DNA of 61,925 nt, counting the filler, from Coriobacteriales bacterium (GTDB lineage Bacteria > Actinomycetota > Coriobacteriia > Coriobacteriales > UBA8131), in NCBI GenBank assembly GCA_031263105.1. It is 6 parts of 6 records of this genome, joined end to end, with 100 filler letters (N's around TTAATTAATTAA, not from the genome) between each part and the next. Parts side by side here need not be neighbours in the genome. Positions count along the whole stretch, not along the records: positions 33,171 to 46,708 come from JAISGJ010000057.1; 5 more parts are not named here. One strand, written 5' to 3'. Below are positions 33,214 to 45,200 of this stretch, one piece after another. Position 1 is the stretch's first letter. Every line of letters begins with the position of its first letter. The position numbers were made by a program.

Positions 33214-36200
33214 AGGAACGCACGGAAGGGCCTGCGGGGCTCTCGCGTTGCCTCGGCCAAACACGCGTCACCGGGGCTGGATCAGGCCGTACCTCAGTTT
33301 GATGCGGTCGAGCTTCTCGAGCAGGGGGCGGGCGATCGCCAAGAGGAAGACCACCGTTGCGAGGGCATGCACGAGGTTGAAGGGGACGCCTTGGACATAG
33401 GCGACGAGGAACATCTCCCAAGTCGGGGCCGGCTGGAACATCAGCACCGACGCGGTGTCCATGATGCCGCCGTACAGGAACAGGGCCGCAAGGGCGCCGA
33501 ACAGCGCCAACGCCCCCCTGCCGCGCGGGAGCAGGCCCTTTTGGAAGAGCACTCCCGCAAGGAAGCCGATGACGCCGAAGGCGAACATCTGCCAAGGGGT
33601 CCAGGGCCCCTGCCCGAAGAACATGTTGCTGACAAACCCCGTCATCGCGCCGACGAGGAAGCCCGACTCGCCCCCGAAGGCCACGGCGGCGACGATGACG
33701 AGGGCTATGACGGGCTTGAACTGGGGCAGCATGAAGAAGGCGACCCTCCCGGCCACCGCAAGCGCACAGAGCACGGCGATGACCACGACCTCGCGGGCCT
33801 GGGGCCTGCGCCCCTCGAACACGAACACGAAGGGCAGCATGGCCTCGACGAGCACCAGCAGCGAGACCAGATAGTACCTGCGGTCGTCGAGGAAGGCGAT
33901 GCCGACGAAGATGGTCAGCGGTATGGCGACAAGCACCATGGCCGTCGCCAGCAGCGTCCGCCCCGACAGGCCTTGGAGGAGAGAGGGCGCGGCGGGGGCA
34001 GGAGAACGGGCGGGCAAGGGGGGCGCACTTGACGGGTGACAGCGGGGACTGTGACAGCGGGGACGGTGTGACAGTCCCCGCTGTCACCAACCGTGCCGTC
34101 CCCCCTGTCACCGCCGCCCTGACACCTGTCCTCCCCCGCCCTGTGCCCGCTCTCGGCGAGGCCCTCGACCACATCCGAAACGGTGACCGCCTTGGGGAAG
34201 ACGTGCCGGGCCATCCGGTTCGCGGCCGTGGTGTAGAAGCTGTTGCCGGAGAAGAAGTCCTGCGGCGGGCCCTCGGCCACCACCTCCCCCTCGAAGACGA
34301 GGGCGCAGCGGTCCGCGTGCTCGGCACAGAACTCCCGGTCGTGGCTGACCATGAGCACCGCCGCCCCCGCTGCCGTCAGGGTGCGCAACAGGGCGGCAAA
34401 GGCCACCTTGAAGTCGGCGTCGAAGCCCTTGGTGGGCTCGTCGAGCAGCAGTATGCGCGGCCGCAGCAGCAAGACCTTCGCCAATGCCGCACGCTGCTGC
34501 TCGCCGCCCGAGAGGTCATAGGGATGGGAGGCGAGCAGGCCGTCGAGCCTGCACAGCCCCGCCATATGCCGCACCTGCTCCTCCCGCTCCTCTCGGGAAA
34601 GCCCCGACGCCGCAAGCATCTCCCCGAGGTCGTCTGCGACGGTCCTGCCGACGAACAGCGTCTGGGGGTCCTGCGGAAGGACGCCGAGCAGCCTGTCGAA
34701 CAGACGGCCCGCAGGAATCCTCCGCAGGTCCTGTCCCTCGACCAGGACCGTGCCCCGATACGGCCTCTGAAGCCCTGCGACGAGCGAGAGCATGGTGGTC
34801 TTCCCGGTGCCGTTGCCGCCGAGCACGGCGGTGACCTGTCCCGGACAGGCCTTGAGCGAGAGGCCCTGCAACACGTCGGGCGAGTCCTTCCCGTACCGGA
34901 ACCAGACCTCCTTGAGCTCGACCGCAGGGAAGGAGGAGGATGTCGATGCCGCGAGGGCAACGGGGACCGGGAGGCTGTCGGCGAGGACGGCGGGGAGCGG
35001 GGATGCAGACGGAGCATCCGGGGCGAGCGCGGGCGGCGCATCCGACCCGAGAGCAGCTGCGGGCGCTGCGGCATCCGGCGCGCTGCGGCCTCCGAGCATC
35101 TCATCCAGCCACTCGCGGCCGTCGCGGACGGTAAGGGGGCAGGGCAGGCCGTTCGGCACCGCCGCCCACACCCGCACAGGGGCCGACATGGCACGGAACA
35201 TCCCGCTGTGCGCCAGGCGCAGCTGCTCGGCCACCTCCCTGGGGGCGCCGTCGGCGACGATGCGCCCCCGCTCCATGACGACGACGCGGGACGCCAGGGG
35301 AAGCGCCTCCTCGAGCCGGTGCTCCGTGAGGATGACGGTGGTGCCCAGCTCGCGGTTGACCCTGCCGAGCGTCTGGAGGAACTCGGCTGCGGCGATGGGG
35401 TCGAGCTGGCCCGTCGGCTCGTCGCAGATGAGGACGCGCGGCTGCATGGCCATGACGGAGGCGAGCGCAAGGAGCTGCTTCTGCCCGCCGGACAGCTCGG
35501 ACACCTGCCGGTGGAACCAGGTCTGTATGCCGAGGAACGAGGCCATCTCCGCCACGCGCAGACGTATCGTGGGGCTGTCGTGTCCCAGGCCCTCGAGCCC
35601 GAAGGCGAGCTCGTGGTAGACCCGGTCGGCGACCATCTGGTCGTCGGGGCCCTGCATCACGAAGCCGATGTCTGCGGCCTCGCTGCGCGGGTCTTGGGCC
35701 TCAAGGGGCGTCCCGGCGTAGCGTATCCTCCCCTCCCTTCTTCCATGGGGGGCAAGCGAGGGCTTGAGATGGCGCAGCAGGGTCGTCTTCCCGCAGCCGG
35801 AGGGGCCGCAGAGCACGACGAACTCCCCTTGTCCGACGAGCAGGTCGACCCCGTCGAGCGCAGGCGCCTGCCGCGTGGGATAGAAGAAGGTCAGATGCTC
35901 GACCGCGAACGCTTCCACAGACAGCCTTCCTGGAGGTCGATGGCGAGCGGCATGGCGCACAGGGCGAGATAGCAGGCGAAGAGGCCGACGGCCGCAGGGT
36001 CGGCCCAAGCCCCTGTCACCAGGGGGAAGTACTGGAAGCGCAGGCCGCCGAGCAGCGCCCCGACGACGAGGCAGCCGCCGCAGACGCCCAGGAACACGAG
36101 GGCCGCCAGGTCCCTGCGCCTGATGCGGTAGGCCGAGAATGCCGTGCGCCCCGCAAGGCCGAAGCCGCGTGCCCTCATGCTGTCGGCCGTCCCGACGGCG

Positions 36201-42200: not shown

Positions 42201-45200
42201 TGCACCGAGCGTGACGGTCACCTCATCCCCCGGATAGACGACCTCCGGCGAGACCGTGACGACGGATGCCGCCTTCAGGGCGGCGACCGCCGCGCCCAGC
42301 GCCGTCGCTGCCGCATCGACGGCGGCCTGCGCTGCCTTCTCGTCAGCCGCAACGGCCCGTGCCTGCGCAAGCGCGGCCCCAAGGGCGGCCCAGCTGCCAG
42401 CGGTGTAGTCGGCCTCGGCAAGCCCCTCGGCTGCGGCGATGGCGGCAACGAGCACGGCCTTGTCGGCGGGCGGGGCGGTGAGCGCCGCCAGCGCCGCAGC
42501 CACCTCGTCCGCCGACGCCAACGGGTCGATGACGACGTCGAGCGCCCCTTGGCGCGCACCCGCGACCGCACCTTCGGCGAAGAGCGCCCGGATCAGCTCG
42601 GTCTTGTCGACATGCGTGTAATACGGCGGCTCGGCCTCCTCCCATTCGGATGCAAGGCCGAGGTCGGCGCCGTAGCCCCAGACCGTGAACTGGAAGCGGA
42701 GCACGTCCCCCTCCCCCAGCGCCTGCTGTCCGATGCCGAGAGCCATCCGATGGTTCACGCTGTACGTCCACCCGCCCATGGGGCTGTAGTCGAACTCCCC
42801 CAGATAGCCGTCGTCGTTGCCATGTTCCTTGGCAGCTGCGGTCGTGGGCCCGCCGTTGGCCGTGACATACGCGGGGACAACGACCGTGGCAGGCCCCGTG
42901 TCGAAGCCCTCGACCGCCGAGAGGTAGCCGTCTGCGTTGCCGCCCTGGAAGCGATGGCCGGTCTGCTCCAGCAGCTCCTCCATCGCCTCGCCTGCCGTCG
43001 AGCCCTCCGGCACCTCGAGCGCCGTCGGCTCGATATAGAAGCCCTGCCCGAGGTTGTAGCCCTCGAAGTCGAGGTAGACGGTGACCGCGCCGTCGCCGTT
43101 CGCGTTCGGCGCAGGGCCTTCCGCGAGCGCCGCGCCCGGCACGAGCCCGAGCGAGAGCATGACGGCCAGCAGGAGCGCAAGCGCCCTGCTCCCGAGTCCC
43201 GTTTTCTTCCTCTGCGTTTCGCCGCGCATGGCCTCTTCCTCCTTCTTCGCCAGATGCTGCCGTCCAGACGGGGCGGTGCTCCCTGTGCCGTTCCTTCGGC
43301 AGCCGAAGCCCGCTCCCTCGTCGACGCATTGGCGCGGCCAGATTCGTTCCCTGGAGGCCGGTGCGCATAAAAAACGAAGGTGCCCCCCATCGACCCGGGG
43401 GCAACTCCTGCACCATCATTGGTAAGTCTCCTGACTTCTGCTTCGTCCTCCCGGGCGCCTTCCCAGCAGACACTCCGTGTCCCGCCAGTGGCATGCTGCC
43501 CGTTCGTCAGCAGTTACAGTTGTGGTCCGCAGTCCCGGACTCGCACCGGGTTCCTCGTTATTGCGTCGCCGCAACCAATGAATCGACGATATTCGATTGA
43601 CCTTCCCAGACACCGAAGAGGCAATCGCCCCTCAGCGTTACTGTTCGCACCCCGCTGCCGCCCCGGATCCCCGCTGCCGCCCCGGATCCCCGCTGTCGCC
43701 CCGGATCCCCGCTGTCGCCCCGAGCCTCCGCTGTCATCCCGAGCCTGCCGAGGGATCCTCGATCGCGCAGCGGTCGACTGCGGCCGGAAGGTGCCTCGGC
43801 CTGCGGTCGGCTGCTTCGCAGTCGAAGATCCCTCGGCAGGCTCGGGATGACAGTGGAGGCTCGGGATGACAGGGTGTGAGCAGTAACCCTCGGCGTCCGT
43901 CAGGGAGACCAGTATAGCGATGGTCCTCCCGTCAGGCAACACCTTCTGGTACACTGTTTGTGCCACAAGGGCGGCCATGGCTTGGCCCGACGCCCGCCTG
44001 ACGGCGCACAACGAGCCAACGGCCCCAAAGGCCTCATTCAACCACCCGTATGCGAGGTTTTCTTGAAGCGCGCCCTGTTCTTCATATGTGCCTGGATATG
44101 CACCGTCACCGCACTGGTCGGCATATTCGTCCCCGTGCTGCCGACCACGCCGCTGCTGCTCCTGGCAACGTTCCTGTTCGCCAAGAGCTCGCCGCGCTAC
44201 CATGCCTGGATACAACAGACGAGGGCCTATCGGCGCTATGTGGTTCCCTTCAAGGAGCGCGGCGGCCTGCCCCTCGGCCAAAAGCTGCGCATCGTCGCCC
44301 TGTCGTTCGTCGTGATGGGCGTAAGCGCCGGCGTCGTGAGGGTCGTCTACGTCTGGGTGATCCTCGCACTGGTCGCGCTCTGGCTGCTGTACCTGATGTT
44401 CATACGCATCCCCACGGTGCCCAAGAAGGCCGACGGGCAGCAGTAGGCCGAGGAGGCCGCATCAGGCAGCACAAAGGCCACCGTCCCCTTTGCGCTGTCT
44501 ATTGGGTGCGTTCGGCCTTGTGCGCGCGTTTGTAGAAGTACATCTTCTCGTCGGCCATGCCGAGCAGCTCGCTGGCGTGGAGGTCGTCGTTCGCGCCCAC
44601 CTCGACGACCCCGTAGCTCATCGAGCGGTTGTAGGTGGACTTGCGCTTGCCGTTGTCGGCGACGAGCTTCGAGCGCAGCACCTCAAGGCGCCGCTCAGAC
44701 TCCTCCTCGCCCCAGTCCCTCGCCAACAGCATGAACTCGTCGCCCCCGAGCCGACAGAGCACCGCATCCTCCGAGAAGCTCCCGAGCAGCTGCGCGACCA
44801 GGAGGATGTACTTGTCCCCCTCGTTGTGCCCGAGCCTGTCATTGACGTACTTGAGGTTGTCCAGGTCGATGAAGCACAGCGAGAAGCGCTGCCTCTGCTC
44901 GAGCCATTGGTTGAAGAGCATCATGCCGAAGTGGCGGCTGTACGCGTTGGTCAGAGGGTCGTACTTCGCGATCTTCTCGAGCCGCAGGAAGGCACGGCGG
45001 CTCGCGGTCGTGTCGGTGAATATGAAGACGACCGCCTCGTGCTCCCCCCAGATATAGGGATGCTGCTGCACGGAAAACGACTGGAAGCCGCCCTCGAACG
45101 TCAGGTCCATGTCCCGCGTCACCTTGAGGGAGCAGCGGTCGGAGGAGAGCTGCTCGCCGAGCCACTCGAAGAGCTGCCCTTCCGTCGCCGGCTCCAGGAG

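Follow-up and report, generated by a model that had tools for sequence, protein, structure and literature searches.

The window analysed here, 61,925 nucleotides in length, chains several contigs of Coriobacteriales bacterium GCA_031263105.1 (Bacteria; Actinomycetota; Coriobacteriia; Coriobacteriales; UBA8131) via N spacers, with the operon contig (JAISGJ010000057.1) occupying positions 33171-46708. The genome assembly consists of 2.9 Mb in 250 contigs and is 86% complete. Downstream of a cobalamin riboswitch, five co-oriented and closely packed minus-strand genes encode, in this order, an 1823-aa surface protein, a tethered DUF4430 protein, EcfT, a fused EcfA-A' ATPase and an S component (Table 1). 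Neighboring genes are either separated by a 17-nt gap or overlap by 4 nt, as do the stop of the DUF4430 gene and the start of ecfT. The ORFs together with domain and structure matches bear out the operon composition proposed in an earlier note on this DNA (giant surface protein, DUF4430 protein and ECF T, A-A' and S components).

Table 1 Features of the operon contig, in positions of the window.
Feature	Position	Strand	Basis or remark
Cobalamin riboswitch aptamer, RF00174	43404..43594	-	cmscan, 94.0 bits, E 4.1e-22
Terminator-like G+C hairpin, then U6 run; candidate expression platform	43369..43403	-	Pattern scan and fold
1823-aa surface protein gene	37758..43229	-	ORF; AAGGAGG Shine-Dalgarno-like sequence before ATG at 43229
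Predicted N-terminal DUF4430-like (transcobalamin beta-like) domain, residues 34-217	42578..43130	-	PF14478
Beta-rich middle region, residues 600-1230; probable tandem Ig-like spacers	39540..41432	-	AF2 and Foldseek
Predicted (alpha/alpha)6 toroid, transcobalamin alpha-like, residues about 1305-1615	38385..39317	-	AF2, VIA-align, hhalign
Gly/Ala/Thr/Pro/Gln-rich stalk (1617-1775), TM helix (1779-1813), basic tail	37791..38381	-	Composition and hydropathy
318-aa tethered DUF4430 protein gene	36784..37740	-	PF14478 58.5 bits, residues 226-303
EcfT-like transmembrane component, 298 aa	35891..36787	-	Solved EcfT chains match
Fused EcfA-EcfA' ATPase	33915..35918/35924	-	Start provisional, GTG at 35918 likely
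CbrT-like S component, 249 aa	33268..34017	-	Start provisional; PF07155 45.2 bits, PF12822 36.5 bits

The riboswitch had previously been placed directly upstream of the operon, and this position is confirmed by an RF00174 match of 94.0 bits (gathering score 31.5) that covers the full length of the model (positions 1-189 of 189). It is the sole RF00174 match in the 2.9-Mb, 86%-complete genome, and its B12-box-like stretch aligns with 25 riboswitches from related loci. A pattern scan located a terminator-like site at 43391-43373, and positions 43362-43412 fold into a GC stem followed by UUUUUU with a minimum free energy of -20.9 kcal/mol. As 12 of 200 shuffled sequences fold equally well (z -1.63), which falls short of the usual significance level, the hairpin is suggestive of an expression platform and is treated as a candidate.

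From its N- to its C-terminus, the giant surface protein is composed of a signal peptide, a DUF4430-like domain, FIVAR (58.6 bits, Pfam) and Ig-like spacers, a toroid domain, a low-complexity stalk and a C-terminal TM helix, with hydrophobic segments at residues 11-38 and 1779-1813. The PF14478 (DUF4430) match reported earlier at residues 141-182 was reproduced exactly in the whole-protein scan (22.7 bits, cut-off 23.8), and residues 34-217 alone reach 29.6 bits, exceeding that cut-off. Alignment of this domain with the DUF4430 profile of the next gene using hhalign yielded a probability of 86.7% (E 4.3e-6, 48 columns). The N-terminal domain is divergent, and tblastn detected relatives in 15 of the 80 best related loci at 24-48% identity. 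A Pfam search of the middle region (residues 600-1230), which is conserved in 8 of these 80 loci, returned no family. Residues 830-1225 are modelled by AF2 as all-beta, though with a pLDDT of only 53.7, Foldseek found only generic tandem-Ig matches (TM 0.14-0.18) and all leads of an Atlas search stayed below 0.9; the region probably consists of tandem Ig-like spacer modules. No canonical LPXTG is present in the C-terminal region, where residue 1771 reads L-P-D-G-T. The giant protein is a fusion: in the same operon of many Firmicutes, a large SLH-anchored DUF4430 protein is encoded on its own, and a toroid protein of 330-560 aa comes after it. Among 11 riboswitch operons, DUF4430 is present in the large first-gene protein of every one and SLH domains in that of 10.

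AF2 predicts an (alpha/alpha)6 arrangement for the toroid domain (pLDDT 88.2), for which 5493 representative relatives were found at E<=1e-3 and 1979 at E<=1e-30. The predicted fold alone does not single out transcobalamin, and the caution of the earlier note that fold matches fail to separate it from terpene cyclases holds: VIA-align gave Z 23.2 for squalene-hopene cyclase and Z 19.3 for intrinsic factor (2pmv_B, 248 of 267 residues aligned), and the lowest Foldseek E-value (1.5e-4) belonged to drimenyl diphosphate synthase. By sequence profile, squalene-hopene cyclase is also nearer (E 1.4e-10), with no transcobalamin chain found among solved structures at E<=10. The cyclase match is confined to a single repeat motif that matches seven different cyclase repeats; where the cyclase has its DxDD motif, this toroid has D-P-D-M and the family consensus DPDxT. 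Many toroid relatives receive weak Pfam matches to Prenyltrans or SQHop_cyclase. PF01122 (Cobalamin_bind), the Pfam model of eukaryotic cobalamin binders, does not match the giant protein's own toroid even at E<=10. It does recognize L119, a toroid protein encoded behind a riboswitch (45.8 bits, cut-off 25), and a precomputed PF01122 match is found in 56 of the 120 L119 relatives listed. The toroid profile of this operon matches L119 with 98% probability (E 1.5e-13) and, using hhalign, an alignment of 21 PF01122-positive bacterial proteins with 99.6% probability (E 1.7e-24). Because these 21 proteins were picked for their precomputed PF01122 matches, their count of 21/21 is circular, the one unselected figure being 56/120. 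Profile comparison ties the toroid to a bacterial subfamily recognized by PF01122.

The 318-aa product of the second gene contains an N-terminal hydrophobic segment (residues 1-33), a 150-aa Ala/Ser/Gly/Thr/Pro stalk and a C-terminal DUF4430 domain (36787-37188). This domain shares 59-69% identity with its equivalents in 20 loci from several phyla and is the most conserved extracellular part (median identity 60% among related loci), which fits a fixed partner. A search of solved chains by sequence with the DUF4430 profile found no transcobalamin; DUF4430 is described as the C-terminal domain of TCN proteins in a passage of PMC4350170. The first two genes are predicted to encode exported, membrane-tethered proteins made of both eukaryotic B12-carrier modules, toroid and DUF4430. 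A giant protein with split transcobalamin-like domains had been proposed, and both domains are indeed found in it, but its N-terminal domain recurs in only 15 of 80 loci and the conserved beta-like partner is the separate next-gene protein, whose gene stands after that of the toroid and ahead of EcfT in 57 of the 80.

Neither Pfam nor NCBIfam matches the EcfT-like protein, which aligns with the solved EcfT chains 5d3m_D (E 3.4e-7), 4hzu_T (6.5e-4) and 4huq_T (8.2e-4). The fused ATPase matches ABC_tran in two stretches (190 bits) and TIGR04520 (ECF_ATPase_1) at 326 bits, with a cut-off of 315. The closest solved relative of the S component is 6fnp_A (E 1.4e-11, residues 71-245 on 6-178 of 182), the second solved S-component match reaching only E 3.7e-3, and the protein can be assigned by sequence as a CbrT homologue. 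The last three genes together specify a dedicated ECF importer, whose S component groups with CbrT, an S component specific for B12. 6FNP corresponds to ECF-CbrT, the B12 importer of Lactobacillus delbrueckii, which according to excerpts of PMC5997447 carries cobalamin and cobinamide and for which hemin is no competitor. Compared with CbrT, the S component contains two additional N-terminal hydrophobic segments, and this extension is conserved, with 46 of 53 strong tblastn matches beginning at query residue <=30.

Synteny was analyzed in the 80 best related loci, on contigs of one genome per species. EcfT and EcfAA' are located downstream on the same strand in 61 of them, and the order toroid, DUF4430, EcfT, EcfAA' recurs in 57. 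An upstream same-strand cobalamin riboswitch was identified by nhmmer in 50 loci, or 47 without three weak unconfirmed matches, and ECF genes and a strong riboswitch match occur together in 39. With cmscan, a riboswitch was found in 5 of the first 7 loci and in 0 of 18 nhmmer-negative loci, and 6 of 8 weak nhmmer matches were upheld. Operon order and riboswitch are conserved across phyla. The riboswitch is not universal among toroid/ECF loci: 20 of the 61 ECF-linked loci have none in the available DNA, 11 of these with at least 4 kb upstream. Of 60 evenly drawn Clostridia-class genomes, each at least 90% complete, 23 contain toroid matches, at 33 sites in total. A riboswitch lies upstream of 21 sites, CbrT-type ECF genes accompany 21 and one or both are found at 31; 10 sites have ECF genes without a riboswitch and 10 are located behind a riboswitch without nearby ECF genes. 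At distant toroid sites lacking adjacent ECF genes, the riboswitch is positioned at most 186 nt before the toroid ORF in 8 of 8 cases, and cmscan upheld all 7 tested (51-108 bits).

Based on CbrT homology of the S component, recurrent gene order and riboswitch, the 31 of 33 sampled sites and the PF01122-linked toroid, a corrinoid is the favored ligand, in agreement with the earlier note. We consider it likely that the operon serves corrinoid (vitamin B12 family) scavenging and is switched off by its own product. When corrinoids are scarce, the riboswitch would let transcription continue, probably beyond the terminator-like hairpin. In the giant protein, a stalk of ~160 residues would hold the toroid close to the membrane, and the next-gene DUF4430 domain would stand on one of ~150 residues, so that the two could enclose a corrinoid like the alpha and beta domains of transcobalamin and deliver it to the CbrT-like S component, which would import it at the expense of ATP. 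The N-terminal DUF4430-like domain, held at a distance by FIVAR and Ig-like spacers, may serve as an outer station for capture or relay. From these features we infer that the proteins bind corrinoid, pair as alpha and beta, span the wall and pass the ligand to the S component.

ECF transporters normally work without binding proteins. The surface proteins could sequester or store corrinoids against neighbors, or attach cells to corrinoid producers or a substrate, while the CbrT-type ECF importer takes up free corrinoid alone. The sampled sites behind a riboswitch without nearby ECF genes (10/33) are in line with this, as are surface B12 'reservoir' proteins in Bacteroides, reported in 10.1101/2025.07.01.662609, and the activity of L. 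delbrueckii ECF-CbrT in proteoliposomes without an extracellular protein (excerpts of PMC5997447). However, toroid and DUF4430 genes immediately precede EcfT in 57/80 loci, the operon genes are tightly spaced or overlapping and the strong conservation of the next-gene DUF4430 domain fits a fixed partner, making storage or anchoring unlikely. Extracellular transcobalamin-like modules serving the ECF importer, as suggested earlier, are supported by the conserved operon order and the sampled sites.

The same module is already known from Lactobacillus sakei (lsa1836-1840), where passages of a preprint (10.1101/864751) describe an ECF importer with secreted alpha-like and beta-like proteins and propose haem as substrate. 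By analogy, the present operon might import haem or tetrapyrroles generally, with the transcobalamin-like proteins as haem scavengers. The passages report haem docking in silico, lower haem uptake upon operon deletion and an S component without residues known for cobalamin binding; they make no mention of a riboswitch. Here, the operon lies behind a cobalamin riboswitch, as do 47-50 of the 80 best loci and 21 of 33 sampled sites, the closest solved relative of the S component is CbrT, whose B12 uptake is not competed by hemin (PMC5997447, in part), and the toroid family is tied to PF01122, so haem import seems very unlikely. Even less probable is that the toroid acts on the envelope, as an enzyme or as a module binding glycans, is akin to terpene cyclases, prenyltransferases or glycoside hydrolases and is under indirect B12 control. 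The top fold and profile matches and the weak Pfam matches of many relatives point that way, but the cyclase profile match reflects one repeat motif, DxDD is replaced, the domain is predicted to be extracellular and linked to PF01122, and the toroid consistently occurs together with DUF4430, the riboswitch and CbrT-type ECF genes.

If corrinoid capture by these surface proteins is correct, it would suggest a way for Gram-positive bacteria to capture extracellular B12. Human transcobalamin has two halves, and bacterial relatives of both are built into the giant surface protein and the smaller tethered one described here. The proposed comparison with BtuG/BtuH of Bacteroides stands for likeness of role but not for homology. 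The riboswitch and ECF linkage of toroid sites also supports the suggestion that the operon bears on a very large class of 'prenyltransferase-like' surface proteins. Neither CbiC nor CobS was found in the 86%-complete Coriobacteriales genome, and a MetH-like B12-dependent methionine synthase is present.

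The operon lies on a contig spanning window positions 33171-46708, with a G+C content of about 68-73%. The window consists of six contigs joined by spacers of N (window positions 4294-4393, 7735-7834, 33071-33170, 46709-46808 and 51933-52032), and genes separated by a spacer are not neighbours. The cobalamin riboswitch heading the five same-strand genes is the only RF00174 match in the genome (2.9 Mb in 250 contigs, 86% complete). The energy of the terminator-like hairpin that follows the aptamer is not clearly better than that of shuffled sequences (z -1.63); in the proposed mechanism, adenosylcobalamin would repress the operon through termination. 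An AAGGAGG motif precedes the ATG of the giant gene. For the DUF454, GGDEF and V4R genes flanking the riboswitch, no evident link to B12 or to the operon could be identified. Upstream of the riboswitch, between it and the only sigma-70-like promoter match (43939-43911), sits a tandem repeat with a 19-nt unit (window 43650-43746; 4.5-5 copies, 92-94% matches). At the other end, beyond the S component gene, the contig opens with a run of 43 C (window 33171-33213), which probably arose in assembly or sequencing.

Features of the riboswitch-led operon, its flanks and the giant protein (window positions, or residues where stated)
Feature	Position	Strand	Details
Cobalamin riboswitch RF00174	43404-43594	-	94.0 bits (gathering score 31.5); whole aptamer, positions 1-189 of the 189-position model
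G+C hairpin followed by U6, terminator-like	43369-43403	-	directly 3' of the aptamer; pattern and fold scans
1823-aa giant protein	37758-43229	-	first operon gene
318-aa DUF4430 protein	36784-37740	-	starts 17 nt past the giant-gene stop
EcfT-like protein	35891-36787	-	4-nt overlap with the DUF4430 gene
Fused double ATPase EcfA-A'	about 33915-35918	-	two ABC_tran domains
S component, CbrT-like	33268-34017	-	last of five same-strand genes
DUF454 protein	43958-44446	+	upstream of the riboswitch
GGDEF diguanylate cyclase	44499-45671	-	weak HAMP match; upstream of the riboswitch
V4R-domain protein	45804-46358	-	upstream of the riboswitch
Hydrophobic N-terminal signal	giant protein residues 11-38		hydropathy
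Divergent DUF4430-like domain	giant protein residues 34-217		PF14478 22.7 bits in the whole protein, 29.6 bits scanned alone
(alpha/alpha)6 toroid	giant protein residues about 1305-1615		pLDDT 88.2

The importer encoded by the last three genes is, judged by sequence kinship, of the ECF-CbrT kind. Its ATPase scores 326 bits with NCBIfam TIGR04520 (ECF_ATPase_1), above the cut-off of 315, and solved EcfT chains match the T component at E 3.4e-7, a Pfam CbiQ match to the latter not being found. Among solved structures, chain A of 6FNP is by a wide margin the closest relative of the S component (E 1.4e-11, residues 71-245 aligning to 6-178 of the 182 in 6fnp_A), the next solved S component following at E 3.7e-3. 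6FNP is ECF-CbrT of Lactobacillus delbrueckii which, according to the passages of its description drawn upon here, transports cobalamin and cobinamide, hemin being no competitor (PMC5997447). The two systems share a homologous S component as well as related EcfT and EcfA/A' proteins; however, the ECF module of the operon is dedicated and operon-encoded, its A and A' are fused and it is accompanied by two extracytoplasmic transcobalamin-like proteins. Riboswitch, operon and accessory proteins are all absent from the same passages on ECF-CbrT (PMC5997447). The S component extends beyond the 182-residue CbrT of 6FNP at its N-terminus, where two additional hydrophobic segments are found (residues 1-70). 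This extension is kept, with 46 of 53 strong S-component relatives starting at query residue 30 or earlier, and it may mark an S subfamily working with extracellular partners.

Both exported proteins carry a DUF4430 domain as well as features consistent with anchoring. In the giant protein, the PF14478 score of the N-terminal domain rises above the cut-off only when residues 34-217 are scanned alone, and hhalign relates this domain to the profile of the next-gene DUF4430 domain (A4) with a probability of 86.7%. No relation was found by hhalign (0.5%) to the N-terminal region of the SLH proteins in A5, an alignment of the PF01122-positive bacterial toroid subfamily. The DUF4430-like domain is followed by FIVAR-type helical repeats and, over about 600 residues, by a middle region rich in beta structure, in which no Pfam family was found; an AF2 model of residues 830-1225 reached a pLDDT of only 53.7, and Foldseek of this poor model returned generic tandem-Ig matches only. 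Residues 600-1230 gave only leads below 0.9 in the ESM Atlas, to Ig-like and CarboxypepD_reg clusters. Behind the toroid, a Gly/Ala/Thr/Pro/Gln stalk of 159 residues leads to one C-terminal transmembrane helix and a basic tail. A sortase LPXTG motif is not present in canonical form in the giant protein, where it reads LPDGT (residue 1771), while the hydrophobic segment and basic tail that accompany such motifs are present. In the 318-aa protein, a hydrophobic N-terminus is followed by a stalk of 152 residues rich in Ala/Ser/Gly/Thr/Pro and by the DUF4430 domain at the C-terminal end (58.5 bits). Carried on stalks of similar length, the toroid of the giant protein and the next-gene DUF4430 domain are thus both predicted to lie close to the membrane. 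The DUF4430-like domain of the giant protein itself lies at the far end of the chain, and this distal domain would serve in outer capture. A complex prediction pairing the toroid (residues 15-335 of its profile A1) and the next-gene DUF4430 domain (residues 14-134 of A4), run without a B12 ligand or controls, yielded scores of 0.13 and 0.01 (mark: 0.32), which count neither for nor against the pair.

The toroid itself is read as a transcobalamin alpha-like domain, although it shares both the fold and a repeat motif with class II terpene cyclases and the beta subunits of prenyltransferases (PF13243, PF13249, PF00432). The earlier note had cautioned that the fold match alone does not single out transcobalamin, and the structural rankings bear this out. 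Foldseek places drimenyl diphosphate synthase at the top (E 1.5e-4), with transcobalamin and intrinsic factor at ranks 19-46. In VIA-align, these enzymes align at Z 22-23, squalene-hopene cyclase 2sqc_A reaching Z 23.2 (rmsd 2.9 over 261 residues), and intrinsic factor aligns at Z 19.3 (rmsd 3.2, 248 of 267 residues). Profile searches lean the same way: A1 (24 sequences) matches squalene-hopene cyclase among solved chains at E 1.4e-10, and no transcobalamin chain was found in that search. Nor was one found among PDB sequences in phmmer searches with both exported proteins, the A4 profile and the toroid of L119, a riboswitch-associated relative. The match between A1 and squalene-hopene cyclase consists of one hairpin motif that matches seven different repeats of this enzyme. 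The catalytic motif of class II terpene cyclases is DxDD. Where the cyclase has DVDDTA, the window toroid reads DPDMTA (family consensus DPDxTA), so the terpene-cyclase catalytic motif is incomplete. Invariant toroid positions are W48, Y67, Q125, D189, Q196, Y201, Q224, E239, Q243, H284, Q297 and Y316, numbered as in sequence P0001. The window toroid further differs from these enzymes in being extracellular and in its genomic company, which is entirely different.

A link to the cobalamin carriers comes from a sister subfamily of the window toroid, recognised by PF01122, the model of eukaryotic cobalamin carriers. The L119 protein, a distant family member found in a genome sample of Clostridia (1069 aa, L119:7000-10206, plus strand), is encoded directly behind a cobalamin riboswitch and scores 45.8 bits with PF01122 against a cut-off of 25. 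Among the 120 listed relatives of its domain, 56 carry a precomputed PF01122 match, most of them together with SLH and many with DUF4430. L119 and the 56 matching relatives are bacterial members of a family named 'eukaryotic'. No PF01122 match to the window toroid itself was found at E<=10; profile comparison by hhalign connects A1 to L119 (98%, E 1.5e-13, 225 columns) and, over the whole toroid, to A5 (99.6%, E 1.7e-24). All 21 proteins of A5 match PF01122, a circular count given that members were picked for that match. The C-terminal domain of TCN proteins corresponds to DUF4430 according to a passage of PMC4350170, and PF14478 recognises this domain in both exported proteins of the operon. 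Transcobalamin, intrinsic factor and haptocorrin (PF01122 plus PF14478) have the same two domain types as the operon proteins. However, the eukaryotic carriers are single soluble chains of about 400 residues, whereas the operon proteins are membrane- or wall-anchored and hold the two domains on separate chains or in reversed order. The alpha-then-beta order within one chain was not found in the giant protein, which runs from a beta-like domain (34-217) through more than 1100 residues to the alpha-like domain (1305-1615); the conserved beta partner is the separate next-gene protein.

Conservation of the operon was analyzed by scanning with the toroid alignment, using one genome per species. This resulted in 582 relatives among 615 matched stretches, of which the 80 best loci were kept, originating from Clostridia, Paenibacillus, Coriobacteriales and one Propionibacteriaceae MAG. 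Based on tblastn with the window proteins, EcfT and EcfAA' genes are located downstream on the same strand in 61 of the 80 best loci, and a DUF4430 gene lies between toroid gene and EcfT in 57. Of the 19 best loci lacking a downstream ECF, eight have at most 1.8 kb of available downstream DNA and four carry ECF genes elsewhere in the locus, one of these being among the eight. Riboswitches in the loci were searched for using an nhmmer profile seeded on cmscan hits. Of the 80 best loci, 50 have one upstream in the same orientation (47 if three weak, unconfirmed matches are left out), and a strong riboswitch match coincides with ECF genes in 39. When checked by cmscan, none of 18 nhmmer-negative loci turned positive and six of eight weak matches were confirmed. 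The riboswitch is not universal: twenty ECF-linked loci have none in the available DNA, although for 11 of them no less than 4 kb of upstream sequence is at hand.

In many loci, the riboswitch is found 3-7 kb upstream of a toroid gene encoding 330-560 aa, with a separate large gene in between. The first or fused large protein was inspected in 11 operons and carries DUF4430 in all 11 and SLH in 10. The window's giant protein is thus the actinobacterial version, fused and membrane-anchored, of what is often split over two genes in Firmicutes. Among the extracellular parts, the next-gene DUF4430 domain is the best conserved, with a median identity of 60% vs 44% for the toroid. Within the window's own family, distribution is patchy and divergent: a toroid gene occurs in 8 of 18 other genera, in all cases with at most 50% identity.

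An evenly drawn sample of 60 genomes, at least 90% complete and all from the class of L007 (a related locus, from Lutispora thermophila), yielded toroid matches in 23 genomes. About 20 kb around each site was inspected by tblastn and nhmmer at 33 sites outside the genome of L007 itself, weakest matches included. An upstream same-strand riboswitch was found at 21 sites and CbrT-type ECF genes likewise at 21, with both at 11, riboswitch only at 10, ECF only at 10 and neither at two, one of which is a 7-kb contig with a weak match. At the eight most distant sites, none of which has a nearby ECF, a riboswitch is located no more than 186 nt before the toroid ORF in every case (7 of 7 tested confirmed by Rfam at 51-108 bits); the encoded proteins carry DUF4430 in seven and SLH in six of the eight cases. 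The earlier note had tied a large class of 'prenyltransferase-like' surface proteins to corrinoids. For the class of L007, the even sample upholds that link; the toroid domain as a whole comprises 5493 representative clusters, and the sampling covers that one class.

The host genome encodes a MetH-like B12-dependent methionine synthase. The corresponding 904-aa frame (G000:C185:3045-5759, locus L082) scores 416 bits against a metH cut-off of 1011 and covers model positions 2-829 of 1182; as it stops at position 829, the C-terminal activation domain is absent. CbiC and CobS were not found in this 86% complete genome, which is at most a hint of auxotrophy. Both DUF4430 domains of the genome are encoded in this operon. 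Of its 11 Peripla_BP_2 binding proteins, none is encoded behind a cobalamin riboswitch. Among listed sequencing runs, no RNA run carries the sequence looked for, and the one run that contains it in full (X1) may be where the DNA came from.

The closest described system is lsa1836-1840 of Lactobacillus sakei 23K, which passages of the preprint portray as the same module, consisting of S, fused A-A' and T components together with secreted beta-like and alpha-like proteins (10.1101/864751). The combination of an ECF importer with secreted alpha-like and beta-like proteins is thus already in print for L. sakei. The L. sakei proteins are small and separate, whereas the alpha-like domain of the window forms the C-terminus of an 1823-aa anchored protein with an N-terminal beta-like domain and long spacers. 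Haem is proposed as substrate in those passages, which do not mention a riboswitch (10.1101/864751). With regard to the proposed role, BtuG, BtuH and BtuJ of Bacteroides are similar, capturing cobamides at the surface and being encoded in B12-riboswitch operons (PMC13616437, PMC8941943, PMC6143338). However, these lipoproteins of the outer membrane have different folds and work with a TonB-dependent transporter, and no homology to the operon proteins was found. On the giant protein, Pfam detected no BtuG beta-propeller, no C-terminal domain of BtuH and no DUF4465 (BtuJ), a negative at the level of sequence families, the middle region being modelled at a pLDDT of only 53.7. For Gram-positive Firmicutes, extracellular cobamide capture 'remains entirely uncharacterized' in the wording of one passage of a 2026 review (PMC13616437). 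Beyond the L. sakei preprint, riboswitch-controlled Gram-positive transcobalamin-like surface proteins were not found in the literature searched, subscription journals and bioRxiv supplements lying outside its scope. The same literature yielded no account of a riboswitch linked to the module across phyla, of giant forms that are anchored or carry SLH, of the bridge through PF01122 or of a relay.

At the level of sequence, the locus has a riboswitch, an operon, CbrT kinship, two transcobalamin-type modules, anchoring signals and conservation as a set, and its assignment as a putative corrinoid uptake operon is well supported. We hypothesize that toroid and DUF4430 domain together would bind a corrinoid and hand it over to the S component. 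In a fuller relay, giant proteins anchored to the S-layer or the membrane would carry DUF4430 and toroid domains on the outside that pass cobamides inward, where the membrane-proximal pair of toroid and DUF4430 would load the CbrT-type ECF importer. The joint reading is tentative, and we consider it possible while falling somewhat short of probable: a Gram-positive corrinoid relay built from transcobalamin-type modules, thousands of Firmicutes SLH toroid proteins acting as cobamide binders and eukaryotic carriers descending from the bacterial family.

Cobamides are a limiting, shared currency of gut and soil communities, and their surface capture by Bacteroides is known in detail. ECF transporters, by definition, work without binding proteins. 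Here, an ECF importer would be served by anchored homologues of both transcobalamin halves under B12-riboswitch control. If true, the relay would be for B12 what the Isd relay is for haem, and would parallel the BtuG/H/J relay of Bacteroides, and a function would be assigned to surface proteins now unannotated or misannotated as 'prenyltransferase', 'squalene cyclase' or 'S-layer homology domain-containing'. It would also settle whether the L. sakei system serves haem or B12. The operon and its many relatives would offer a concrete, testable answer to the question of Gram-positive cobamide capture which, resting on comparative evidence, should be of considerable interest to cobamide ecology.

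In the related loci L002 and L012, ECF and DUF4430 genes are located upstream on the opposite strand, divergent from a riboswitch-led giant toroid gene, so the module also exists as two divergent units. Some loci, such as L008 (112-356 and 6433-6629) and L097 (5980-6104 and 7598-7733), have two cobalamin riboswitches in tandem orientation, within a few kb ahead of the toroid genes. Finally, the genome of L053 (G033, C1:5468357-5530440) has seven toroid matches within 62 kb, all on one strand and in frames of 527-3635 aa, and the nhmmer profile places three cobalamin riboswitch matches in L053 itself; this stretch may represent a large 'corrinoid island'.
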